64,000 nucleotides of DNA from a bacterium (GTDB lineage Bacteria; Patescibacteriota; Dojkabacteria; GCA-016699595), in assembly GCA_016699595.1 (NCBI GenBank), contig CP064982.1:507962-571961 (forward strand). The letters are read 5' to 3'. Every line of letters begins with the position of its first letter. Positions within the stretch are counted from its first letter, which is position 1. Made by a program: the position numbers and the translations under genes. Below, piece after piece: positions 6,471 through 29,267 of the stretch. Under the pieces are notes generated by a model. The model was given only the letters and a program-made list of their open reading frames with translations. It was not told the origin of the DNA and searched no databases.

Positions 6471-8393
6471 TTATAATTTTCCTGATATTATCGTATGTAC
6501 CAACGAAGATGGAAAAACCACATGTACATTTCTCTTTATACTTTCAATCATTATATTACCAAATTTGCCAGAAATCAAATTGTCATCCAGATCTTTATCT
6601 ACAAACCTGAGCATTAACAGAATCCCTAGATCCTTTTTTGACATATTTTTTATTTGTGTATTTATAGGATCAGTTAAAAAGTTAAAAAGTTTTTCTATGC
6701 CATATTTATAACCAAGCTCAAAAAAAACTGATTTCATCAAACTTTCAAATAATTCTGATTCAGAAAACCTTCTATACAACGCTTGTTTTCCAAATGTTGA
6801 TAACTGACATTGATTATTTGAAACCTTAGCTAAACTGGCCAATCTTAATAACTCTAACATTTGCGAATTTTGTTTGGACGAAGGTTTACCAATGTCAAAG
6901 TTTACAACTGATTCTAAAGTATGTAATAACTTTGTAACAATCCCATTTTGAAATCTACCCTCTTCATTGTCCTCAAATTTAGTCACTATCAAAACTTTTG
7001 TCAAAATCATATCTGACATTTTATCCGCTCTAAGATGAGTAGCATTCTTAGAATTGTTTTTAATATTTACATTGCCAAGCAAAAACTTCCTGATATCTTC
7101 AAAATGCTTCTTTTCGAGCAATCTATATAGTCTATTTAGAGATTTTTTGTAGTATAGACTATTTCTATTTCTCTCCCTTAGATTTACATTTACAGATGTC
7201 AATTCATATATCGGCAATAATTTTTGAAAAGTGGCCAAATATTGTTCAAAGTTATCATAGCACCTGTACACACTTTGAAACTTTTCGTTTATTCTCTCAA
7301 ACTCTTCAACTACTTCAAATGTAGAAACTTTATTTGGAACACTTGAATAGTTTAACAAATTACTCTCATCACCATCATTCATATATTCAGAGATTCTTAG
7401 AACCTTGTTTATGAAGTCCTTCGTAAAGCTCTCAGTATTCAGAAAAGATTGTTTTGCAGGATGAGATACAAACAAACTTTTGGCAAGAAATTTCAAAAAA
7501 ACTATATCTTCAGCCGATAGTAATTCAAAGTTCAATTTTAATTCAAGATTCTCTATAAATTTCTCAATGGACTTCTCCTCCAATATTTCTAGTTCAAAAT
7601 CAAAAAGATTGAGTCTTATCAATAATTCTCTGCACTTATGAAAAAAAACTACGAGAAGTTCATCGTATTCCAAACTCTGGATCACTTCTATTTTGTCTAA
7701 TGTATTTTGAAATCTATAAAACAAATATAATGAATCAAGTTGGGGTGAATATTTTTTAAATGATTGACCTCGCAGAAGTTTTTGACCCGCCTCTAACTTC
7801 TCAAATCTAGCTGCAACAAAACCTTCGGTAAATTTCCAAATATACCCATCTTTATAAATTCTAGCTAGAAGGATCGCTCCCCTTTTCAAAAAGATTCTAT
7901 CACTTTTGTCAACAGAAAAAACACTTTTCGTTTTGATATTTTCAAGGAAGACTATATTTGCAGAATCAAATCCAACTATTTTGAATTCGGAATAAATTGT
8001 ATGTAGAAAATTCTGGAAAAGTATATATTCCTCAGGGTCAACTACTTTTGCAAAATCAAGATAATGTTCTAGTATTGTTTTTGTCTCTCCACCAATATCT
8101 ACTTTTCCTTCAAAAACCAATCCTTCAAACAAAGCTACAATCTGATCCATATTTGCTACACCTTCAAAATATTGCATAATCTTCAATTCAAAGTACTTAG
8201 GCCAAAACTTCTGTGAAGCAAGCCAAACTCCAATTTTCTTCATCCATCCTGGACCTTGAAATTTTGAAGAAAGGGTAAAATTCGAAATATTTAATTCGTT
8301 TGATTTTGAATCTGGATAATTGTCAAATTTCTCCTTTGCTTTAACTTTTTTTTCAGAAAATGGATCTTGATTTGCCAGTATCTTGTATGACAT
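6471..8393 (-). CDS. Hypothetical protein (640 aa), no recognisable motif
   Basis: Long uninterrupted ORF tightly spaced with neighbours; no Walker or other motif recognised. Confidence 0.5.
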   Translation of the reverse strand: MSYKILANQDPFSEKKVKAKEKFDNYPDSKSNELNISNFTLSSKFQGPGWMKKIGVWLASQKFWPKYFELKIMQYFEGVANMDQIVALFEGLVFEGKVDIGGETKTILEHYLDFAKVVDPEEYILFQNFLHTIYSEFKIVGFDSANIVFLENIKTKSVFSVDKSDRIFLKRGAILLARIYKDGYIWKFTEGFVAARFEKLEAGQKLLRGQSFKKYSPQLDSLYLFYRFQNTLDKIEVIQSLEYDELLVVFFHKCRELLIRLNLFDFELEILEEKSIEKFIENLELKLNFELLSAEDIVFLKFLAKSLFVSHPAKQSFLNTESFTKDFINKVLRISEYMNDGDESNLLNYSSVPNKVSTFEVVEEFERINEKFQSVYRCYDNFEQYLATFQKLLPIYELTSVNVNLRERNRNSLYYKKSLNRLYRLLEKKHFEDIRKFLLGNVNIKNNSKNATHLRADKMSDMILTKVLIVTKFEDNEEGRFQNGIVTKLLHTLESVVNFDIGKPSSKQNSQMLELLRLASLAKVSNNQCQLSTFGKQALYRRFSESELFESLMKSVFFELGYKYGIEKLFNFLTDPINTQIKNMSKKDLGILLMLRFVDKDLDDNLISGKFGNIMIESIKRNVHVVFPSSLVHTIISGKL

Positions 8394-8405
8394 TTACAAA
8401 TTATA

Positions 8406-9107
8406 TCAATTGAAGCGTTCAAAATGAATACTTTCCTCAGAATAGCCCTTTTGAAGTAAGTATTCCTGCAAATCATTTACAGCTTGTTTGCTACCACAAA
8501 TGAAGAAATGAGGAGATTTCAAGTTGCTTAATGTAAGTTTATCTAATCCGTCTTGTATATGCCCAATATTATAGCTACCAAATATCTCTTCACCTTTGGA
8601 TAACCATAATTCATAGTGAAAGTGATTATTCTCTTTCATGAGCTTATCAAAACAGTCCTTATAGTAAATGTCCTTTACAAATCTCAGTCCATGATAAAGA
8701 AACAAATGTCTTATTCTTTGTGAATGAAAATTTATTTCTGTCTCAGGGAGCAAACTTTCTATCATGATTTTTATAGGGGCAATACCAACTCCAGTTGCTA
8801 AGAAAATTAGATCCGAATCGATAGGGATCTTTTCAAGTGTAAATTTACCTATAGGACCTAGCATTTTGATGTTATCGCCAATTTGTAAATTTGATAATAA
8901 GCTTGTAAATCTACCTCCTTCAATGATTTCTATCGTCAAACTAAAGGAATCTTCTAGAATACCTGATATTGAATAAGCCCTAGCAACCTTGTCTAATACT
9001 AAGTTGACATATTGACCAGGCTGTGGATTAAAATTTTGTGGCCTTGCAAAAAAAAATTCGACAACACTTGTTGTCAAATTTATCTTTTTTAATAGCCTTG
9101 TGAACAT
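8406..9107 (-). CDS. Ferredoxin-NADP reductase-like FAD/NAD(P)-binding oxidoreductase
   Basis: RAYSIS (RxYS FAD-binding) and LATGVGIAPIKIM nucleotide-binding motifs; start trimmed to MFTRLL at 9107 to avoid overlap with the upstream gene. Confidence 0.6.
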   Translation of the reverse strand: MFTRLLKKINLTTSVVEFFFARPQNFNPQPGQYVNLVLDKVARAYSISGILEDSFSLTIEIIEGGRFTSLLSNLQIGDNIKMLGPIGKFTLEKIPIDSDLIFLATGVGIAPIKIMIESLLPETEINFHSQRIRHLFLYHGLRFVKDIYYKDCFDKLMKENNHFHYELWLSKGEEIFGSYNIGHIQDGLDKLTLSNLKSPHFFICGSKQAVNDLQEYLLQKGYSEESIHFERFN

Positions 9108-9132
9108 ATACTTTATAAAAAGAGAAAAATTT

Positions 9133-18614: not shown

Positions 18615-19442
18615 TTACAAAGCAGCATCTGCTGCTGATTTCATTTCAGTCCAACTATATGCTCCAGCAAAGTTTTGATAATTCACAAAAAAGCCCGGTG
18701 TCCCAAAATTAGGGCCTACTGCAAAAGTATATGACAGAGTTTGTTCTGATGCCAATCTTGCTTTATACTTACCAGAAGATACACACTCCTTTAACGAGTC
18801 ATTAACTACATTTGTGGGTAACAAAGCATATAGTTTATCAACTAGTGCAATATCATTTTTGACTTCATTGTTGATCACGCTATAAGCAATATTTGTGAAT
18901 AAGGCATTATGAGCTTCAAAAAACTTGCCTTGATCGTATGCACAATACATAACTTGTGTAGCAACTTCACCAGCTCCATGTCCTGGGAAATATAACCAGA
19001 CAAATTGTGCCTTTCCTTCATTTACAAGCTTCTCAATCTCTCTAACAGGTGGAACATAAGTTCCTCCATCGGTATCATATTTAAACCTAGCATCTTGACT
19101 AGCTAGTTCTGGGTTGTATCCTCCTGCAATATGACAATAAGGACAACTTGGATCTGATATTTCTACTATTTTCAATTTAGCATCCTTACTTCCCATGAAA
19201 ATGAGATCATTTCTTTCAAAGAGTGCATCAATTTGTTCATTGGAAATCGTTTTGGTTTCTGCAGTAGTAGTAGTGTTTTGTGAGTTTGCAGTCAAATTCA
19301 AATTTCCACCTGATAGCTTATCTACTTTTGTAGATATAACTATCAAACCAACAAAAATTATGATTGCTGATATAAATATAGTTATAGGAGTCAAAAAAGG
19401 CAATAAATTCACCTCATCCATTTTTGAAGAATTTCTATCCAT
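18615..19442 (-). CDS. DsbA-like thiol:disulfide oxidoreductase, membrane-anchored
   Basis: N-terminal TM helix, thioredoxin-fold CPYC active-site motif. Confidence 0.7.
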   Translation of the reverse strand: MDRNSSKMDEVNLLPFLTPITIFISAIIIFVGLIVISTKVDKLSGGNLNLTANSQNTTTTAETKTISNEQIDALFERNDLIFMGSKDAKLKIVEISDPSCPYCHIAGGYNPELASQDARFKYDTDGGTYVPPVREIEKLVNEGKAQFVWLYFPGHGAGEVATQVMYCAYDQGKFFEAHNALFTNIAYSVINNEVKNDIALVDKLYALLPTNVVNDSLKECVSSGKYKARLASEQTLSYTFAVGPNFGTPGFFVNYQNFAGAYSWTEMKSAADAAL

Positions 19443-19506
19443 AATACTTGTCTCATCTGGATTACCAGATCAAATTGATAAGTCAGATATTCTATAACAA
19501 AAATAA

Positions 19507-20673
19507 TTAAAGTGCAACAATAAAATCTCCGGAAATCCACCCAGTCAGATTTCCTTTTGAAATTTTATACCATCCATTTTCTTCTGAAATAACTTTATAG
19601 ACTTCGCCATTATAAACCCTGTCTATCTCAACAGAGTAAATGTTCGAACTCTCCCTTACACGAAGAAAATCATTCGGGGCGCCGCTTACAACAATACTTT
19701 TTTCAGTTTGCACTCCTTGTATAGCTTGTATCAGTTTTACTTGCTCACGATCAGTATTTACTGAGAATCTGGTATTACTTATTTTGATCCCGTTTAATGT
19801 GCCCAAAATGAAATCCTGTGAAGCATTGGGAACAAACTTAATAAACAAGCTAATCACTTTTTCATCATTCACCTTCAAAACATCCTTGGGTTTGAAAAGT
19901 GCAACTCTAGAAAAAGATGACCAGTATTCCTCTCCTGCGTAAAACTTACTCGTTTTGTCAAATGGATTTTCAGTTATCAAAAATATTGGGGAAATATTCT
20001 CTCCATATATGCCAACATCACCAATGTTTTTTAAGGACATTTTAACTTCAACTATGTCACCTTGCTTATAGCTTTGTTCCATTTCTTCAAAGTTTACAGA
20101 TAACTTATACTCTGGAGACTTAGTACTTGATAGATCTTTTAGTGAATTTATGGAATTAGATAAACTTGAATTTTCCGAATCAAGCAACGATAATTTGTAG
20201 GATTTTTCTTCTTCATTGATATTTATTTGCAATTTGCTTAGGATAATATCTTCAATAGCATAGCTTTCAAGCATTTTTTGAATATCCTTATTCACTACAC
20301 TTTCGCTAGGTGAAGTCCATACAATTATTTCATTTGATGTTTCGCCTAAGTTTATTTCTGATTCAGGTCCATCTTTTGCAAGTTGGTACAGTTCCTGATT
20401 GCATAAAAAATAATGAGCAGGCAAGTCAGACATAAAAAATCTTGTAGTCAGATAATACTGTAAATTTCTAACTTGCCTATCGCAACTTCTGGTCTCACTT
20501 AGTTCAACTTCAACGAATCTTAGTGATTTTGGCATTCTGAAGACTGCTTCTTTTGAGTATAGGGCTTCGTCAGCTAGCCAAACCTCCCTTTTCGTTAGTG
20601 CAAAATTATCTATAGTCGAATAGCTAAAGAAAAATATTGTAAAGATAAGTATTAAAAAAAGTTTTTTGATCAT
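19507..20673 (-). CDS. Secreted hypothetical protein with C-terminal SH3b-like domain
   Basis: N-terminal signal peptide MIKKLFLILIFTIFFFSYS; C-terminal YKVISEENGWYKISKGNLTGWISGDFI resembles bacterial SH3. Confidence 0.5.
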   Translation of the reverse strand: MIKKLFLILIFTIFFFSYSTIDNFALTKREVWLADEALYSKEAVFRMPKSLRFVEVELSETRSCDRQVRNLQYYLTTRFFMSDLPAHYFLCNQELYQLAKDGPESEINLGETSNEIIVWTSPSESVVNKDIQKMLESYAIEDIILSKLQININEEEKSYKLSLLDSENSSLSNSINSLKDLSSTKSPEYKLSVNFEEMEQSYKQGDIVEVKMSLKNIGDVGIYGENISPIFLITENPFDKTSKFYAGEEYWSSFSRVALFKPKDVLKVNDEKVISLFIKFVPNASQDFILGTLNGIKISNTRFSVNTDREQVKLIQAIQGVQTEKSIVVSGAPNDFLRVRESSNIYSVEIDRVYNGEVYKVISEENGWYKISKGNLTGWISGDFIVAL

Positions 20674-20695
20674 AATTTATAAAATGCCGTTACAT

Positions 20696-21619
20696 TTAGC
20701 GGATATATCTTCTTATCACAAAAGCATTTATGAATCCTCCAAAAAGTACTCCAACTGCGACATTAATTAACAGACAAAATATCAAATTTACCAAACTAAT
20801 AGAATCCCTCAATCCTATTTGATTAAAAAGATTATATATTTGACCTTCCCTAAGAATGTTTGGGTTAATGAAATAAATAACAAGAAAAATAGCTAAGAAA
20901 AATAACATCGAAAATATAATGGAGATAAAACCATATACAGCCCCTTCCATGACGAATGGAGTTCGAATTTGACTATTCGTAGCACCAACCAGCTGCATAA
21001 TACCAATTTCTTCTGACCTGATCCTTATTGAGAGTTCAATTGATAGTATGGTACTTGCCAAAGCTACCAAAAACATCAACCCCAAAAATATTCCTACCAA
21101 AACTCTAGCTACATTTAGTAACTTATCTAGTTTTTCAATATTGTCAATCTGCGATTCAATATCTTCGATTTGGCCCTCCGACAATTCCTTTTCTTTTGTT
21201 ACGAAACTAACCAATTCCTTAAGTTCGTCAATTGTATTCGCTCTAATGTCAAGAGATGCAGGTAATTGTCCAGGTTCATCTGGCTTTATTGATTCGTAAA
21301 TCAAAGGATAATCCTTTACTGATTCTAGGAAGTATGGAATAGCTTCTATATCAGAGGTATATATTATTTGATTTGCCTTTTTTGTATCTTCTATTTTAGT
21401 TTTAATGTCATTTATATAGTTTTCTGGAGTATTTATCTTAAAGAAAATGATTACATTAGGTTGCGTCTCAGCATAATTTGCAATTTTTTGAAAAACAAAT
21501 AAACTTATCAGCAGTATATTTGTGAGCAAAAATATCAAGGATAATACTGACAAAGTAGAAAAAGTTATAAACTTATACCTTGCAATATTTTTTGTAGCTG
21601 TAGATAAATTTTTAAACAT
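20696..21619 (-). CDS. ftsX: Cell division permease FtsX-like
   Basis: 307 aa; N-terminal TM, large extracytoplasmic loop, three C-terminal TM helices, MQLVGATNSQIRTPF motif. Confidence 0.7.
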   Translation of the reverse strand: MFKNLSTATKNIARYKFITFSTLSVLSLIFLLTNILLISLFVFQKIANYAETQPNVIIFFKINTPENYINDIKTKIEDTKKANQIIYTSDIEAIPYFLESVKDYPLIYESIKPDEPGQLPASLDIRANTIDELKELVSFVTKEKELSEGQIEDIESQIDNIEKLDKLLNVARVLVGIFLGLMFLVALASTILSIELSIRIRSEEIGIMQLVGATNSQIRTPFVMEGAVYGFISIIFSMLFFLAIFLVIYFINPNILREGQIYNLFNQIGLRDSISLVNLIFCLLINVAVGVLFGGFINAFVIRRYIR

Positions 21620-21712
21620 GATGAAATTTTAATCATTATCGATTTTGATTGCAAGAAGAAGATTGCAGAATTTACTCAAACAATACCAGTCATTTGAAAA
21701 AGAAAATGCTTA

Positions 21713-22960
21713 TCATATGCGTTTCATCTCTTTTGCTAACTCAACCTCATATTCATCTGGAGTTGCTGAGACATAAATTGTTTGATGAAGTTTTGAGTTA
21801 AATTCTTCAAACTTGAGAGGTCTATTGTCAAGTGCAGAAGGAAGTCTGAAGCCATACTCAACTAAGTTCGTTTTCCTTGCTCGATCTCCATTGTACATTC
21901 CACGAACTTGCGGAATAGTCATATGAGATTCATCAACTACAAGCAACCAATCTTTTGGAAAATAGTCAAGAAGTGTGCTAGGAGAACTTCCAACTTCTCT
22001 ACCTTCAATGATTCTGGAGTAGTTTTCGATTCCAGAAACATAACCGACTTCTTGAAGCATTTCAATATCAAAATTAACTCGCTGCTCAATTCTTTTTGAT
22101 TCAACTATTAGGCTCCTATTTTTGAAGTAATCAATTCTTTTGACTAACTCTTCTTGAATTTTTGGAATAGATGAAACAAGTTTTTCTTCTGGAGTTACAT
22201 ATTGTTTTGCAGGAAAGATTTTTATTTCAGTAATGCTGCTTCCCTGGATACTTTCCGGTTTATTTCCAATTTTCTCTCCAGTTAGTGGATGAAATAAGTT
22301 AATTTGTTCCAAAGTATCTCCAAAAAATTCAAGTCGAATTGCATTTTCACCTCCAACTTGATAAATATCTATGATATCGCCTCGAATTCTGAAACTTCCT
22401 GGGATGAAATCAAGCTCAGATCTTTCATACTGAAGATCAATCAACTGATGAATGAGTTTGTCTCTTGGGTAATCTTCTCGAACTTTCAAATTTCTAGTTA
22501 AAGCCATATAATCTTCAGGGTTTCCAAGTCCATAAATTGCAGAAACAGAAGCAACTATGATCACATCTGATCGAGTTAGTAATGACTGAGTAGTTGCAGC
22601 TCTATAGCGCTCAATATCTTTATTTATATCAACTTCCTTTTCAATGTAAAGATCTTTACTTGGAACATAGCTTTCCGGTTGATAATAGTCATAATAAGAA
22701 ATGAAGTATTCAACTGCATTATTGGGAAAAAACTCTTTAAATTCTGAAAATAACTGTGCTGCTAGAGTTTTGTTGTGAGCAAGAACTAGTGTTGGTTTTT
22801 GGATATTTTCGATAACATTTGCAATTGTGAAAGTTTTCCCAGTTCCAGTTGCACCAAGTAAGACTTGATTTTTCAAACCATAATTTATTCCTTGCGTTAG
22901 ATAATCTATAGCTTTTGGCTGATCTCCAGATGGTTTGTACTTAGAATGAAGTTGAAACAT
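21713..22960 (-). CDS. uvrB: UvrB excinuclease subunit, N-terminal 415 aa only (truncated or split)
   Basis: KPSGDQPKAI, LLGATGTGKTF Walker A, YFISYYDYYQPE, VDESHMTIPQ, RLPSALDNRPLKFEEF, IYVSATP; ORF stops where UvrB domain 3 should begin. Confidence 0.8.
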   Translation of the reverse strand: MFQLHSKYKPSGDQPKAIDYLTQGINYGLKNQVLLGATGTGKTFTIANVIENIQKPTLVLAHNKTLAAQLFSEFKEFFPNNAVEYFISYYDYYQPESYVPSKDLYIEKEVDINKDIERYRAATTQSLLTRSDVIIVASVSAIYGLGNPEDYMALTRNLKVREDYPRDKLIHQLIDLQYERSELDFIPGSFRIRGDIIDIYQVGGENAIRLEFFGDTLEQINLFHPLTGEKIGNKPESIQGSSITEIKIFPAKQYVTPEEKLVSSIPKIQEELVKRIDYFKNRSLIVESKRIEQRVNFDIEMLQEVGYVSGIENYSRIIEGREVGSSPSTLLDYFPKDWLLVVDESHMTIPQVRGMYNGDRARKTNLVEYGFRLPSALDNRPLKFEEFNSKLHQTIYVSATPDEYEVELAKEMKRI

Positions 22961-22968
22961 AAATTTAA

Positions 22969-23793
22969 CTAATCTTTAAATAACTCTAATATCATTTTTC
23001 TATAAATATTTTTAACAATATCATAATGTTCTTCCGAGAATTCAGAAAATATCTTTAGTGAAGCTGAACCATTTACTTCCAATATTATAGGTTGTCCAAA
23101 TTCATCAATAAGAAAATCTACTCCAGCATACCTTAATTCCATAATTTTGCAAGCTTTCTTTGATGCATCAGCAATCTTGTCCTTTAAATCACTAGAAACA
23201 TTCAATTCTGGAATTGCACCTTCAGACAAATTATGTTTCCAACTTGTAGTTCTTTTCTTAGCATAAACAAGTTCTATTTCACCATTCAAAATTATACATC
23301 TATATTCAAATTCAGAATCAATAAATGGATTTACTACGAAATTAAAATAAGTCTTTACTTGGTTTAAATAATATTGCAAAAAGATCTCTTTAAAATCATT
23401 TAAGTTTTCTATCTTATAAACATCTTTTCCACCAGATGAATTAAGAGGTTTAATAACTATTGGAAATTTTTCATTTTTTACAAATTCATAAGCTAAATTG
23501 AAGAATTTCTCAAACTTATTTTCTGTTTCTATTTCATTATCCAATGTCCAAAATAATTTGTATTCTACAACATTTATATTTTCATGCGAAAGAATTTCAT
23601 AAGTAATTTGTTTATCTTTTGCAAGCTCCAAAGCATTTCCAGAATTTGGATTTGGTTGTTTATTTAAAATATATTTAGTTACTTCACCATTCGTAAGCTT
23701 CGCAAGATATTTATCATTTTGCAAATATTTTATTTTTACCCTTGCTTCCTTGCATACTTCTTCTAAAACTTTGAATAAACTATCGTTTTGCAT
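22969..23793 (-). CDS. ATP-grasp family protein
   Basis: 274 aa; fold-level resemblance (IVIKPLNSSGGKDV, EVNGSASL) to RimK/glutathione-synthetase-type ATP-grasp enzymes. Confidence 0.5.
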   Translation of the reverse strand: MQNDSLFKVLEEVCKEARVKIKYLQNDKYLAKLTNGEVTKYILNKQPNPNSGNALELAKDKQITYEILSHENINVVEYKLFWTLDNEIETENKFEKFFNLAYEFVKNEKFPIVIKPLNSSGGKDVYKIENLNDFKEIFLQYYLNQVKTYFNFVVNPFIDSEFEYRCIILNGEIELVYAKKRTTSWKHNLSEGAIPELNVSSDLKDKIADASKKACKIMELRYAGVDFLIDEFGQPIILEVNGSASLKIFSEFSEEHYDIVKNIYRKMILELFKD

Positions 23794-23818
23794 ATGTTAG
23801 AATTATATTATTAATTTA

Positions 23819-24685
23819 ATGCTGAATATTATATCAGTTCTAAAACCCTATAACCCAGAAACTAAATCCGGTCTAATCGTTTTTGATAAACCTACGGGAA
23901 TTACTACGAATGACTTGGTTTATCAAGTTCGAAAAGAATACGGAACTCGCAAAGTTGGTGCAGCTGGAGTTCTAGATCCATTCGCAACTGGTGCTGTGAT
24001 AATAGGTATAGGAAATTGTACAAAAGACCTGACTCAATTTGAAAATTGTGAAAAGACTTACGAATTTGAGATGATTTTCGGACTTCAAACCTTGTCTGGA
24101 GACAATCAAGATATGATCGTAGATATCGTTCCTTTTAGGAAGGTGCCAAATGTCAATGAGGCGAAAGGTTTAAGTATAGATACTCTTGCAACTAATCGTC
24201 AAAATATTATTTCTACTTTTCCTAACTCCTACTTTCAAGAAGTTCCACTTTTGAGTTCAGTTAAGGTTCAAGGTCATAAACTTCGAGAATTAACTAGGAA
24301 GAATGTAAATAATATTGAATTCCTAAGCGAATATAAGTTCAATATAAAAACAGAAAGAGAAGTAAACTTCAAAAAAAGTGAAATAATACTCAAAATTCCA
24401 AGAAGAAAAGTTGAGATAAAGAGTTTAGAATTACTTGAGACCGGAACAAAGAGTTATAATCAAATTATACAAAATGCAAGTCAAGAATTTATAAATTCTT
24501 TTAATTGCTTCCTTGGGGAAGCTGTCCCGCAAAGCGGGGCTGAAGGGGTTCATTTCTCTTATTTCAAGTTCAAAACAACAGTTTCCAAAGGAACATATAT
24601 CCGAAAACTTGCAGAAGATATAGCTTTCTTGAATAATGAATTGGGGTGTGTGATGCTTTTAAGCAGGACGTCTTATATAGCTTAA
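23819..24685 (+). CDS. truB: tRNA pseudouridine(55) synthase TruB
   Basis: KPTGITTNDLV, GAAGVLDPFATG catalytic Asp motif, SKGTYIRKLAEDI. Confidence 0.85.
   Translation: MLNIISVLKPYNPETKSGLIVFDKPTGITTNDLVYQVRKEYGTRKVGAAGVLDPFATGAVIIGIGNCTKDLTQFENCEKTYEFEMIFGLQTLSGDNQDMIVDIVPFRKVPNVNEAKGLSIDTLATNRQNIISTFPNSYFQEVPLLSSVKVQGHKLRELTRKNVNNIEFLSEYKFNIKTEREVNFKKSEIILKIPRRKVEIKSLELLETGTKSYNQIIQNASQEFINSFNCFLGEAVPQSGAEGVHFSYFKFKTTVSKGTYIRKLAEDIAFLNNELGCVMLLSRTSYIA
24506..24558. repeat. GC-rich double-hairpin palindromic element, copy A, in-frame within truB
   Basis: GCTTCCTTGGGGAAGCTGTCCCGCAAAGCGGGGCTGAAGGGGTTCATTTCTC; close match to 53853-53905; encodes FLGEAVPQSGAEGVHFS. Confidence 0.65.
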
Positions 24686-24998
24686 GGGCCCACCATTAGA
24701 ATTCGAACTACTTAACTCCTGTTCCCTAGCCTGAGCAAACACAATTTTTTCTATACAGTCAGTAAGCTTCTGCAATGCCTCCTTTAAGGAGACTTCCGAA
24801 TAACATCTTATCGCCCCATTTACATCATCAGTAGCTTGATCTACTAATTCAGTAAAGGGTCCATCAGATCTATAGTATGTAGTACCAAAAAGTCTTCTAA
24901 TCTCTACTGATGCTCCTTTTATTCCAGCTTCTATTTTTTGCTTATTTTCGGGAGTATAGACATTAGAACCTTCGAAAGCATGAAAAATTTTTTGCCAT
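24659..24998 (-). pseudogene. Frameshifted or unconventional-start ORF convergent with truB
   Basis: ATG at 24996-24998 opens an 11-codon frame; the neighbouring frame is open for ~107 codons with no Met; a 1-nt slip in the A6T5 run would fuse them. Confidence 0.3.
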
Positions 24999-25116
24999 AA
25001 AGTTTAAAGTTTAGTTAGTAAAATTCAATCTGTAGAATTATATATATATATGGAAAATCAAGCAAAAAAATTATCAAATGTAATAGAGTCAAATTCAGTA
25101 GTTCACAATACGAAGA

Positions 25117-25147
25117 GAATGCATTTACATTGTAAATAAATGCATTC
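25117..25147. terminator. 11-bp stem hairpin downstream of the adhesin gene stop, putative terminator
   Basis: GAATGCATTTA-cattgtaaa-TAAATGCATTC, followed by CTTTATTTATTAT on the plus strand. Confidence 0.35.
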
Positions 25148-25181
25148 CTTTATTTATTATAAGAAATTTATATGCTTACCC

Positions 25182-28100
25182 TTAAATATACTTCAAGAAG
25201 AAAATCTTCTTCCCTGTTGATGCGAGAGAACCCAAAATCTCTCCAAAATTGATATTTTCAATATCAGAATCAATTATATTTACAGACTCTTCGTTTGAAG
25301 GTCTTTCCGTAGATGAGTACTTCTCAGGTTGTGACTCTACGACTCGATATTGACCAGGCAATAAATCAGTGAATTCATAATAGCCGAATTCATCAGTCAG
25401 AACTATTTGCCCATTTGACAAAGTCATTTTGATACCTGCAAGTGATCTGTCGCCATAATTCTTTGATTTATCGGCATTTTTATCATGATATACATAACCA
25501 GATATTGTATACAGTTTTAATCTAGCATATGCCAAGTCAGTATCCATAACATTAGCAGGTTGCCCAGATGGTAGAAGTGGTGGAGTAGCTACTACTGTTG
25601 CTACATTCACATGCTGACTTGAATCAGTTGGTGCAAGATAAGTTGCAGTACATTGCATACTCTCTCCTTCAGTCAAAACATCTTTCGGACACTGAATATT
25701 ATTTATAAGATTATCTGTAACTGATATATCATGTAGATTTGTATTTCCAGTGTTTGTCACATAGTATGTTATATTCATCATTTCTCCAGCAGATACTACA
25801 ACACCCGGAGGTGTATTTGCATCATCTCCGTTTATTTTCTTAACAATACTAATTGATGAAGATGTACCAACTAAACCTGCATCTATTGTTAAATTATTTT
25901 CTCCGACCATAAGCTCAAATTGTTCCGTATCTCCAAGAGCATCAGAATTTGAATCTGTCAAAAAACTCCCACCATTCTTGTATGTAAATTCATAACCATT
26001 AGGTTTAGCAAACCTTACTTTATAACTTCCATGCAATATATTTTCAAAAAGATAGTGTCCATCTGCATCAGTGAAAACAGTTCCAACTACATTATTCAAG
26101 CTATCCAATAATTCAACTTTCATATTTCCAAACCCAGATTCATCATTATCTTGGATCCCGTTGCCATTCTTATCTAACCAAACAAAGTTACCTATACTTC
26201 CATTAACTACTATTATAGGTACATTATTTGACTGTACTGGTAAAGCTAGACCTGTAGCTCTAAGCATAAACTTGTTTGTATAAATATCTCCTGGTTTATT
26301 CGGATTTGATATAGAAGGTATCAATACCAGCAGATACTTTGATTCTTCATTAGGTAACATTGCACTTGTTTGTATTCTAAAACCAGTAACCTCAGTTATG
26401 TTTGACGGACATCCGGCATTACCGAACTGACCTTGAGCACACCAAACTATACTTGGATTGATGGTTTGTGGGTCAAAGTCTTGAGGAAGCGTCAACAAAG
26501 ATTGTGATTGTTTCGAGTAAAGTATTGCACTTGGATCTACTCCAGATACTTTTGTCAAACTACTCAAGTAAGTAGTTCCTGTAAAATTCGTTGCAGGATT
26601 GCGCCCATCACCATTCCATGGTAGCCAATCGATGAGGTCAGTTCCAGCAACTGGATCACTTCCGGTGTTTTTCATCACAATTTCATACTCAAGTGGTTGC
26701 ATACTCTCAATTAGGGGTGAAATTGCTTTTTTGTTTACCGAAAAAGCAGATGAATTTTCAAACTGTACTGTAGCAGTAGAAGTTCGTACACTTTCAAACG
26801 AATTATCATTATCTGCAGACATAATTGCTTGATTAATTTTGATATCTCCATTACCAATGGTTGCATCTGAAATTGTTTTATATGTAATTTTTGTCAGGGG
26901 TAAACCAGAGGTTACATTACCAAAATTCCAAACTAATGTTGCACTTCCATCATTGTTCACAGTGAATGTTGGTTCACAAGTTACAGGTTGAATCATATCA
27001 GTATCCATACATATAGAAGAGCCATATTGATATCCCAATCCAGCAGGAATTGTATCTACTATTTTTACATTTATTGCTTCACCGGCTGGAGTTACTCCCA
27101 TAGCATCAGTACTTGGTTGCAAGTACCAGTTTATCTCACTCCCTGATAATTTCGAATCATTTTTTGTAGTTAAATCTTTCGTTGTTTTATTTATCCTAAC
27201 TCTAGAACCTGTAACTATTACCCTATCTCCGTGAGTGCCAGTAGCAGTATTTGCATTATAAGAAGGAACTGTTTGCCATGAACTTGGGTCATTTGGATTT
27301 GCATTAAACCAATTCCCACCTGGTATGTACCACTTACCATAATTTGGAACTATATCGCCAGGTTGTGCTGTAGGCAACATCTTATGTTTAATTGCTAAAA
27401 ATTGTACGCCATAACCTGTTTGGGCTATCATATCAGCCTGTTCAGATGCAGTAAAATTATCCCTAAATTTCAACCTAACTTTTGTAACCCGTTCAGGACC
27501 TCCAGGTATACTGTTTAGATCCAAATACCATATTCCCCCAGTAGAGTCATTATCAAAACATGTGCCAAGTCTTTCATCTTCAAAATTACTCCATGTAATT
27601 CCTTGACCATTTAGACCACCTACTCCATATTCAATAACTGCATCAGTATATGATTCCCATAAACTTGAATTTGATGGAATATGAGTAAATGCACCTTCAC
27701 CAGTATTTCCAGGGATTCTATCTATTGAAGAATTTTTGTTATCTATAGTTGTACACATAATCGAACCATTTGGTATATCAGCTATCCCATAATAATACCA
27801 AAGATTCAATGACGTCCAATTTGAATTGGCACTTAAAAACCCATCTCCTGTACGATAGGATGATCCAACATATTCTGCACCCCACCACATTGCACATGAA
27901 TCAGCATTTGCTTCAGTAATAAAGTTACAATTAATCAAATCATCGCTACGATAATCATAATCAGCTTTTTCAACCGAACCTTCAGATGGTCTAGCTATAA
28001 TTTGTTGATACCAGTTTTCAGTTCCCACTAAATCTGACTGTCCTGTTGTTTGTATATTTGTCATTCCACTACCTGGCTCATTACCAACCCCGCCCCAGTT

Positions 28101-29267
28101 TTGCCTTCCTGATATTGCTCCAATTGGCTCAAAGTTATTTATTTTATTCAGAGCAGAGATCTGATACTGATTTGATCCAGAAAACTCTGAATATGGTATC
28201 CATACACCTATTGAATACGAACCAATCCAATTATCTCTTGAAGATAAAGACACACCCGTCCAATCAACAGTTGGGAAATAAGATGGATTTGTATGAAGAT
28301 CAGTAATTGTTACATCAATTAACTGTGAATTACCCATACTAGGAATACAAGTTATTTGCCCTGAATCTTCCACAGATCTGTCAGGCGTTGAATAGCCAGG
28401 GTTATTCCCTCCATAAATACCTAATCTTCCAGCAGGTGCATTATAAGCATAGTGAAGGTTATTCGTAAATCCAGGGGTAGAAAAATAATTTAGTGACAAT
28501 CCGCATTCAAACAATTTTGCATTGGGACTAATCATTGATATATCATCTTGAAAAGTTATTGGTAAGGCAGGAATTTCTGATCCTGCACGAAGTTTCAAGC
28601 CAACTCCATAAGTCCATACTCCTCCAACTACACCATCTACTGTTATGGTTCCTCTAAATGAGGCTGACAATTTCTGTAAATCCACCTTCATGGCAGATGT
28701 TCCAGTTATATCAACTGTTGTTGCATTATCAGTATTTGGTACACCAGAAACTGAAACTGAAGCAGATACATTGAAAGTACTCCCATCAACTAATGTAGGC
28801 AAAGCTTTTACATTTGCTGTGAAACCCAGCGTATCACCCGTAGATTTTGTACCTAAGTTACATGTCAATTGACTTTGATTGTTAACGCCATCACCAGTTA
28901 TTTGTGAACCAGTTCCATTACAAACCAATGGAAGTGCTTCCCATTTATACCCTAGAGGTAAAGGAACTGTAGTCAATGTATAATTATCATAAGGGCTTGG
29001 AACAGTAGCATTTGGATCATTCAGAGAAACATCAAATCGATAGCTTGTTATCTGACCAGCCCGAACTATCTCATTACTATCACCAATGTCATTACCCGAA
29101 CCTGCAACAGAATCAAAAGGTGCAGTACCATCGAATAGTTTCGTGATAGCGATTTCAGGATAAGTGGTCGTGGAATCAGCATTAACTTTCAATTTATAGT
29201 CACTGTAAATATTTATAGATAAAAAAACAAATACAAAAAGTGTTATTAGTTTAAAGAATTTTTTCAT
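25182..29267 (-). CDS. Large secreted surface protein (1361 aa) with SdrD/Cna B-type domains and C-terminal SLASTGK motif
   Basis: Signal peptide MKKFFKLITLFVFVFLSINIYS; B-type repeats (GNFVWLDKNGNGIQD..., YTISGYVYHDKNADKSKNYGD...); C-terminus GSLASTGKKIFFLKYI. Confidence 0.75.
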   Translation of the reverse strand: MKKFFKLITLFVFVFLSINIYSDYKLKVNADSTTTYPEIAITKLFDGTAPFDSVAGSGNDIGDSNEIVRAGQITSYRFDVSLNDPNATVPSPYDNYTLTTVPLPLGYKWEALPLVCNGTGSQITGDGVNNQSQLTCNLGTKSTGDTLGFTANVKALPTLVDGSTFNVSASVSVSGVPNTDNATTVDITGTSAMKVDLQKLSASFRGTITVDGVVGGVWTYGVGLKLRAGSEIPALPITFQDDISMISPNAKLFECGLSLNYFSTPGFTNNLHYAYNAPAGRLGIYGGNNPGYSTPDRSVEDSGQITCIPSMGNSQLIDVTITDLHTNPSYFPTVDWTGVSLSSRDNWIGSYSIGVWIPYSEFSGSNQYQISALNKINNFEPIGAISGRQNWGGVGNEPGSGMTNIQTTGQSDLVGTENWYQQIIARPSEGSVEKADYDYRSDDLINCNFITEANADSCAMWWGAEYVGSSYRTGDGFLSANSNWTSLNLWYYYGIADIPNGSIMCTTIDNKNSSIDRIPGNTGEGAFTHIPSNSSLWESYTDAVIEYGVGGLNGQGITWSNFEDERLGTCFDNDSTGGIWYLDLNSIPGGPERVTKVRLKFRDNFTASEQADMIAQTGYGVQFLAIKHKMLPTAQPGDIVPNYGKWYIPGGNWFNANPNDPSSWQTVPSYNANTATGTHGDRVIVTGSRVRINKTTKDLTTKNDSKLSGSEINWYLQPSTDAMGVTPAGEAINVKIVDTIPAGLGYQYGSSICMDTDMIQPVTCEPTFTVNNDGSATLVWNFGNVTSGLPLTKITYKTISDATIGNGDIKINQAIMSADNDNSFESVRTSTATVQFENSSAFSVNKKAISPLIESMQPLEYEIVMKNTGSDPVAGTDLIDWLPWNGDGRNPATNFTGTTYLSSLTKVSGVDPSAILYSKQSQSLLTLPQDFDPQTINPSIVWCAQGQFGNAGCPSNITEVTGFRIQTSAMLPNEESKYLLVLIPSISNPNKPGDIYTNKFMLRATGLALPVQSNNVPIIVVNGSIGNFVWLDKNGNGIQDNDESGFGNMKVELLDSLNNVVGTVFTDADGHYLFENILHGSYKVRFAKPNGYEFTYKNGGSFLTDSNSDALGDTEQFELMVGENNLTIDAGLVGTSSSISIVKKINGDDANTPPGVVVSAGEMMNITYYVTNTGNTNLHDISVTDNLINNIQCPKDVLTEGESMQCTATYLAPTDSSQHVNVATVVATPPLLPSGQPANVMDTDLAYARLKLYTISGYVYHDKNADKSKNYGDRSLAGIKMTLSNGQIVLTDEFGYYEFTDLLPGQYRVVESQPEKYSSTERPSNEESVNIIDSDIENINFGEILGSLASTGKKIFFLKYI

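Follow-up and report, generated by a model that had tools for sequence, protein, structure and literature searches.

The stretch of DNA analysed here (the window) comprises 64,000 nucleotides with a GC content of ~33%, taken from a genome of the Dojkabacteria (GCA_016699595.1, contig CP064982.1, positions 507,962 to 571,961). Its minus strand carries an open reading frame (ORF) of 415 residues that encodes the N-terminal half of the DNA repair protein UvrB, whereas the C-terminal half is encoded by a second gene elsewhere on the same 761,814-bp record. The ORF ends in ...IYVSATPDEYEVELAKEMKRI*, and its main elements, located by alignment in the case of the three helicase and hairpin motifs and from the sequence in the case of the stop codons, are the following:

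21713-22960, minus strand: N-terminal half of uvrB (domains 1a, 2 and 1b), ATG start, 415 aa.
22832-22855, minus strand: Walker A or helicase motif I, GATGTGKT (aa 36-43).
22667-22696, minus strand: aromatic cluster of the beta-hairpin, YYDYYQPESY (aa 89-98).
21923-21934, minus strand: helicase motif II, DESH (aa 343-346).
21716-21769, minus strand: SATP motif (aa 398-401), the final conserved element of UvrB ahead of the break, and 14-aa C-terminal tail DEYEVELAKEMKRI.
21710-21715, minus strand: tandem stop codons TGA TAA closing the N-half.

The product of the ORF is identical to the NCBI protein QQR93318.1 (P0001 in our numbering of proteins), annotated as 'DEAD/DEAH box helicase family protein'. 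It matched the Pfam families UvrB_inter (PF17757, E = 3.1e-25), ResIII and DEAD, and its residues 2-411 aligned to positions 2-403 of the 658 positions of TIGR00631, the NCBIfam equivalog model for UvrB (E = 7.9e-188). The score of 625.7 bits is below the curated full-length cutoff of that model, set at 750.1 bits. On the basis of the Pfam and TIGR00631 matches the ORF is unambiguously UvrB, but only its N-terminal part. In comparison with solved structures, it spans residues 5-403 of the 658-aa UvrB chains from Bacillus caldotenax, with 56-57% identity to solved UvrBs. Domain 3 (the second RecA-like domain, with motifs IV-VI) and the C-terminal UVR domain 4 are not in the ORF, the TIGR00631 match ending at position 403.

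Alignment with 48 relatives revealed that Walker A residues G36, T38, G41, K42 and T43 are invariant, as are every residue of DESH and the majority of positions in YYDYYQPESY, and that GFRLPSALDNRPL is largely invariant. The AlphaFold2 (AF2) model of the N-half, built with the relatives' alignment, reached a mean predicted local distance difference test value (pLDDT) of 89.1 and a predicted template modelling score (pTM) of 0.87, with a terminal helix predicted for residues 403-414 of the tail. This model was superimposed on UvrB chain 3uwx_B, from the UvrA-UvrB complex, with a template modelling score relative to the query (TMq) of 0.94 and a root-mean-square deviation of 1.3 A. It was also superimposed on 7egt_A with a TMq of 0.91 and a score relative to the target (TMt) of 0.92. 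The latter chain, with a sequence of 411 residues, is an engineered 'N-terminal domain of UvrB' from T. thermophilus that was crystallised with the C-terminal domain of UvrD, and its boundaries match those of the natural N-half almost residue for residue. This match indicates that the fragment is an autonomous folding unit.

The surroundings of the N-half in the window are as follows:

21620-21709, minus strand: spacer between the N-half and ftsX, without UvrB-like frame, intein or Rfam family.
20696-21619, minus strand: ftsX, the downstream neighbour, in the place that the C-half has in the fused or adjacent arrangement.
22969-23793, minus strand: RimK-like ATP-grasp gene, ending 8 nt upstream of the N-half start.
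23819-24685, plus strand: truB, divergent, a synteny anchor that adjoins full-length uvrB in a fused relative.

The three frames 3' of the N-half stop are closed or unrelated, and none is UvrB-like ahead of ftsX, which starts at 21619. In addition, tblastn searches with C-terminal regions taken from three relatives of full length found no UvrB C-terminal frame in the 64-kb window (best E = 0.24). An earlier note, made from these letters alone, had described a UvrB ORF of 415 residues without the C-terminal helicase and UvrC-interaction regions, and no UvrB-like frame downstream (21620-21712, then ftsX); both observations hold. The RimK-like gene and the N-half are probably co-transcribed, as judged from their arrangement. 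Scans for promoters and terminators around both halves gave counts not above those of shuffled sequence.

The C-terminal half was found with a relative as the starting point. In a relative with 71% identity, represented by the contig designated L002 (contigs and loci are given L numbers), a 275-aa ORF with Helicase_C, UvrB and UVR matches lies 810 bp 3' of the N-half. A search with this ORF as the query retrieved P0215, a protein of 303 aa encoded on the same 761,814-bp record as the N-half. P0215 corresponds to NCBI QQR93221.1 (locus tag IPJ91_02050), annotated as 'hypothetical protein', and is separated from QQR93318.1 by 97 protein accessions. It aligned to positions ~404-656 of the 658 positions of TIGR00631 with a score of 322 bits. 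Both halves occur in the Logan sample SRR11674035, which derives from activated sludge, where the C-half was found at the following place:

L007:5332-6243: C-half (P0215) in the source genome's Logan contig.

In this 8-kb contig, which has no overlap with the window, the C-half lies between a divergent gene for an SdrD_B/CLIPPER surface protein and a 153-aa ORF, which is followed by ruvX. The N-terminus of P0215 reads MDKKNHLDKNYEGIVEQIIRPTGLLDP; the gene has its own ATG, with an in-frame stop two codons upstream and the sequence AAGGAG 14 nt upstream in L007. The protein ends in a UVR-type motif, ...LQMELFADQMYFEKAAILRDVLKEM, aligning to TIGR00631 position 656 of 658. Its structural model had a pLDDT of 79.6, with the first ~27 residues as coil and block values of 61 and 68 over the first 20, so that each half, at 89.1 and 79.6, folds confidently on its own in the models. 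A stretch of ~35 aa, IDSQNFSTLRFEIENSTLIENVKHRIIKPQRDLFS, is inserted after RPTGLLDPEIEIRP at residues ~34-68 of the C-half and is predicted, with good confidence, to be helical. Many CPR (candidate phyla radiation) UvrBs of ~700 aa have an insertion at this place, and the nearest relatives, L002, P0004 and P0005, do not. A foreign origin of the C-half, suspected from the insertion, was rejected on finding that its core is nearest to the N-half's own relatives.

The two halves together behave as one UvrB. Their TIGR00631 scores sum to ~948 bits, above the 750.1-bit cutoff that each alone fails to reach, and the concatenated halves align end to end with fused UvrBs, without gap or overlap and with all hallmark motifs intact. 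These include helicase motifs IV-VI in the C-half (GINLLREGLDVPEV, ILDADKEGFLRS and QTIGRAAR), and the junction of the concatenate does not exceed the linker of fused relatives in length. The core of the C-half was 79.5% identical to P0005, 74.7% to P0004 and 73.5% to L002, and the N-half was 72-73% identical to the same relatives. The C core is thus nearest to the same relatives as the N-half, and therefore one vertical history can be traced for both pieces. The pair tiles a single protein from non-adjacent loci in one genome, with each part conserved, as expected of a dispersed split gene. The window ORF alone lacks domains 3 and 4 and falls under the single-chain score, and only the pair has them all. 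Two intact, conserved and complementary genes are thus present in one genome.

The stop codon of the N-half is real and conserved. An independent Logan contig of short reads from run SRR11674035, L001, matches 9,293 bp of the window (18510-27802) with 100% identity, and in it the stop runs directly into ftsX. The stop falls at the same residue in P0241, a strain variant more than 90% identical, and in P0002, a relative with 88% identity encoded at locus L093. Codon-level comparison of the N-half with L093 gave pN = 0.077 and pS = 0.654 (proportions of nonsynonymous and synonymous differences), an omega of ~0.05 and a dS (synonymous divergence) of ~1.5. In L093 the stop is the same, the neighbouring genes differ on either side, and no C-half follows directly. 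From the omega value and the context of L093, strong purifying selection has maintained the ORF as an N-half alone since before the window and L093 diverged.

It is the linker joining the two RecA-like domains, 1a and 3, that contains the break. The N-halves of all split forms end 10-30 residues past SATPxxYE. In nearly all sampled standalone C-halves a few initial residues precede (L)P.NY.G-IV(E/Y)QIIRPTGL, the C-half studied here reading LDKNYEG. Its head, MDKKNHLDKNYEG, has only ~13 residues before the conserved NYEGIVEQIIRPTGL. In fused relatives the inter-lobe linker varies from ~10 to ~70 residues, a range that marks it as a permissive, hyper-variable segment.

Many of the closest homologues of the N-half are ~407-428 aa long and are interspersed with fused proteins of 650-720 aa, and the distant matches listed for it in genome contigs were fused UvrBs of Bacillota and Chloroflexota with 55-59% identity. 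Fused uvrB genes were seen in L088 and in L089/L090. In L089/L090 a divergent truB lies directly beside the full-length uvrB, and the window shows the same arrangement except for the intervening ATP-grasp gene. This truB-uvrB order places the window N-half at the apparent ancestral uvrB site, from which the C-half has moved away. Adjacent halves were observed in L002 (gap of 810 bp), L004/L005 (gap of 190 bp), L091/L092 (gap of 298 bp) and L098/L099 (with a 113-aa ORF between them), and dispersed halves in the genome of the window, L006, L093 and AP024679.1 (L096). In the last of these, a complete 862-kb Dojkabacteria chromosome, the C-half is flanked by ssb and mnmA, and no N-half occurs within 10 kb of it.

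Standalone C-halves form at least 120 distinct clusters at 90% identity, of uniform length and with a conserved N-terminus; several are on contigs longer than 1 Mb and several are named Dojkabacteria. All of the best 120 matches to the standalone C-half were standalone (120/120), in a ranking that appears to favour proteins of similar length. Since fused C-termini score equally in local BLAST, rarity of the fused forms was not concluded from these matches.

The DNA at the fission site differs among lineages. In L002 (11225-12035, equal to L003:2431-3241) the 810-bp spacer is AT-rich, with a GC fraction of ~0.23, and has two sense ORFs of 75 and 53 aa without family match. The spacers L004:11261-11453 (equal to L005:3708-3900) and L091:7647-7944 (equal to L092:7635-7932) belong to two related lineages and share a conserved antisense ORF for a hydrophobic peptide of 22-24 aa, MSAAIMIVVVVAVLAILLGSFE and MDAALIAVFVLAALLVLNVLTGES; a small membrane peptide and a type-I-toxin-like gene are both conceivable. 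The 113-aa ORF of L098 (1765-2106, equal to L099:1612-1926) encodes a multi-pass hydrophobic product without significant Pfam match, and its start and stop overlap each half by 4 nt (ATGA), an arrangement that suggests translational coupling of the three genes. A common origin of these spacer ORFs (113 aa in L098, 75 and 53 aa in L002, and the antisense peptide of L004 and L091) was considered and rejected, as they have no mutual similarity and their Pfam matches are all sub-threshold. Three lineages thus carry unrelated insertions at the break, and this unrelated content constitutes an independent argument for separate events.

The same question was approached with a bootstrapped neighbour-joining (NJ) tree of the N region, based on 54 sequences, 394 columns and 200 replicates. 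The split protein P0003 was sister to the fused protein P0004 in 97.5% of the replicates, and monophyly of all split forms received 0% support. The minimum number of state changes was six in 179 of the 200 replicates, with a range of 5-7.

The organisation of the UvrB motor gives these observations a functional meaning. Domain 4 of UvrB binds UvrC. UvrB is a superfamily 2 (SF2) translocase whose helicase motifs lie in domains 1a and 3, with the nucleotide-binding site at the domain 1a/3 interface, and its domain 4 is autoinhibitory (PMC7835731). Given this location of the motifs and of the ATP site, the break cuts the motor exactly between its lobes. The catalytic residues of both lobes are invariant or nearly so in split lineages, and their retention on both polypeptides, with the ATP site at the interface of domains 1a and 3, makes reassembly the best explanation.

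We therefore consider that the window ORF is the N-terminal subunit gene of a fissioned and dispersed uvrB, that its partner P0215 lies far off on the same chromosome, and that the two jointly form a two-subunit UvrB. According to this explanation, the fission in this genome is one of several independent ones in a Patescibacteria/Dojkabacteria-like group, all in the same linker. For this explanation as a whole we estimate a probability of roughly 0.75. The variable segment that links domains 1a and 3 would be where fission took place, and later rearrangement would have scattered the halves in some lineages, that of the window included. The N subunit would provide Walker A and DESH for ATPase activity, the beta-hairpin that probes for damage, and domain 2, which binds UvrA. 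The C subunit would contribute domain 3, whose motifs IV-VI (QTIGRAAR) complete the ATP site, and the UvrC-recruiting UVR domain. The halves would join probably through the native contact of domains 1a and 3, with ATP, DNA and UvrA lending stability, and would so rebuild the single inter-lobe ATP site and give a two-subunit UvrB in nucleotide excision repair (NER). Judging from the sequences, non-covalent association of the halves and a role in NER are most likely. A broader proposal is more tentative, and we rate its chances at slightly less than even: that there were at least five fissions at one linker, often associated with, and maybe caused by, insertions of small unrelated genes, several of them for hydrophobic peptides. 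The outcome would be an obligate heterodimeric UvrB motor with its ATP site between separately encoded and, once dispersed, separately regulated chains.

Several points weigh against this explanation. The physical association of the halves is something that we infer, and SF2 inter-lobe interfaces are generally weak. No split-specific docking module (a coiled coil or split intein, for instance) was found to separate split from fused forms, and therefore the halves would have to assemble by way of the native interface. Evidence of selection on the C-half is thin, its comparison with L094 (P0236, 95% identical) giving an omega of 0.34 from only 27 substitutions. The distance of ~97 genes, roughly 90-100 kb, between the halves is reckoned from accession numbers, not from coordinates. 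No full-length uvrB of the 761,814-bp record appeared among the best 120 matches to the N-half or to the C-half, which does not strictly exclude one, and neither uvrA nor uvrC is among the ten largest ORFs of the window, the only region covered in this respect. Finally, the count of fissions comes from one protein region and an NJ tree, could be inflated by horizontal transfer and includes some short forms from short contigs.

Three other explanations, each very unlikely, would dispense with a two-subunit enzyme altogether. The least credible is that a sequencing or assembly artefact, or recoding of TGA, conceals a real gene of full length. The source is metagenome-assembled, and some CPR lineages read TGA as sense, but the independent short-read contig agrees fully (100%) with the window through the stop and into ftsX, and the C-half is on a different Logan contig with unrelated neighbours and no overlap with the window. 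Recoding or read-through was itself rejected, as the TGA is directly followed by TAA and no UvrB frame lies beyond. It is nearly as improbable that a nonsense mutation or rearrangement left two decaying remnants in a reduced genome. The genome is small (the 761,814-bp record), such lineages lose repair genes and the NCBI annotation names neither piece UvrB. Against decay stand the omega of 0.05 over a dS of ~1.5 with a conserved stop, the absence of frameshifts, the intact motifs, the C-half's own start codon, and the 120 or more clusters of standalone C-halves with their uniform length and conserved N-terminus. A covalent full-length UvrB restored by a split intein or by intron trans-splicing merits equally little credit. 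Split inteins do rejoin dispersed split genes in some bacteria, as in cyanobacterial DnaE, but no intein blocks are present at either junction. The N-half has 14 residues past SATP (DEYEVELAKEMKRI) with no Cys or Ser starting an intein block, the C-half has ~13 residues before NYEGIVEQIIRPTGL (head MDKKNHLDKNYEG) with no HN plus Cys/Ser/Thr junction, and the concatenated linker is no longer than in fused relatives. A scan at the Rfam gathering threshold of the window, L007, L002 and L004 returned tRNAs only, with no group I or II intron. With no intein at either junction, any assembly is therefore non-covalent.

The main rival, which we still regard as improbable, is subfunctionalisation, in which the halves are kept for separate jobs and no UvrB ATPase is rebuilt; the N-half could be, for example, an ATPase-dead DNA clamp binding UvrA or UvrD, and the C-half a free UvrC adaptor or regulator. 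This idea is favoured by the separation of the halves by ~97 genes, with different neighbours and presumably separate promoters, by the lack of a split-specific docking element, and by the stability of an isolated N-terminal UvrB fragment, which binds the Tudor domain of UvrD (7EGT). In addition, domain 4 is autoinhibitory in fused UvrB (PMC7835731) and could in principle act in trans. On the contrary, the near-invariance of Walker A and DESH in the N-half and of motifs IV-VI in the C-half throughout split lineages is hard to explain without reassembly, and the divergence of the two halves is congruent. We thus favour the dispersed, two-subunit UvrB.

These results also settle what the earlier note had left as alternatives. 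Its suggestion of a split gene with the other half elsewhere is right, the other half being the 303-aa protein P0215 on the same record. A pseudogene is contradicted by the omega of ~0.05, the motifs and the stop, and a genuinely minimal UvrB by a C-half that is present, conserved and congruent. The word 'truncated' in its title is misleading, the C-half being encoded elsewhere, and the ORF is better described as the N-terminal half of a dispersed split uvrB. An error at the stop codon, which it had named as grounds for withdrawal, is contradicted by the identity with L001 over 9,293 bp. A full-length gene at this locus in relatives, named in the same way, does exist as the fused uvrB beside truB in L089, but it represents the ancestral state and not an error here.

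Other features of the region were recorded. Two tRNA genes (18324-18397 and 18486-18557, minus strand) lie just 3' of a thioredoxin-like gene. A predicted surface protein of 1361 aa is encoded at 25182-29267 (minus strand), 2 kb from the N-half, with C-terminal repeats that look SdrD_B-like by eye and are not Pfam-confirmed. An SdrD_B/CLIPPER protein of 803 aa directly adjoins the C-half (L007:2803-5214, minus strand). As the genome is rich in SdrD_B-type proteins, their presence near both halves is probably coincidental. Further away, a TraG-like P-loop/AAA_10 ATPase of 766 aa (9133-11433, minus strand) has two large ORFs without Pfam match as its neighbours, one of 640 and one of 606 aa (neighbours at 6471-15331). 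The region may be a cluster for type IV secretion, conjugation or a competence-like process.

The pair shares domain content, domain order and catalytic and structural motifs with canonical single-chain UvrB (B. caldotenax 1t5l/2fdc; TIGR00631/PRK05298). It differs from it in that two genes, for 415 and 303 aa, lie ~97 genes apart and the ATP site must form between two polypeptides. The 7EGT construct, despite its nearly identical boundaries, and UvrB* were obtained from a fused gene in the laboratory or by proteolysis, whereas here the N-half is a native product with a separately encoded complement. Moreover, proteolytic UvrB* lacks domain 4 only (PMC7835731), while here domains 3 and 4 make up the second polypeptide. 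Cyanobacterial dnaE-n and dnaE-c are likewise two distant ORFs for one conserved protein, but they are split-intein genes, and the junctions described here have no intein sequence.

The closest parallel is found in Nanoarchaeota, where dispersed split genes include reverse gyrase (NEQ318/434) and the 'large helicase-related protein' (NEQ003/409). The helicase-related gene is split at different sites in two lineages, and the fissions are viewed by the authors as derived characters of symbionts with reduced genomes (PMC3655853). Here as there, the lineage has a small genome and is probably symbiotic, a single-chain enzyme is encoded by two non-adjacent ORFs, the fission is derived, and the time or site at which the same helicase-type gene was split differs among lineages. 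The nanoarchaeal genes are archaeal and encode other proteins, whereas here a bacterial UvrB underwent recurrent fission at one linker, with the fused, adjacent and dispersed stages all visible. In the literature searched we found no description of a split UvrB and nothing linking uvrB, gene fission and Dojkabacteria.

Dojkabacteria C-halves are annotated as 'UvrB/UvrC motif-containing protein' or 'hypothetical protein'. Because of these generic names of the halves, pathway reconstructions of these CPR genomes would wrongly score UvrB, and with it NER, as absent or broken. A naturally split UvrB under purifying selection would mean that the covalent link between the lobes is dispensable in a textbook single-chain SF2 motor. 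It would also offer a ready-made two-piece system for studying the contribution of each lobe, and of the autoinhibitory domain 4 in trans. If the explanation is true, this is a natural two-piece SF2 translocase in which the stoichiometry or timing of the autoinhibitory, UvrC-recruiting half could be controlled apart from the damage-probing half. As a bacterial parallel to the nanoarchaeal split genes, with several independent origins at one permissive site, it would allow tests of how genes undergo fission in reduced genomes. Altogether, the main value of the finding lies in recurrent fission at a single linker and in what would be a natural two-piece SF2 motor.

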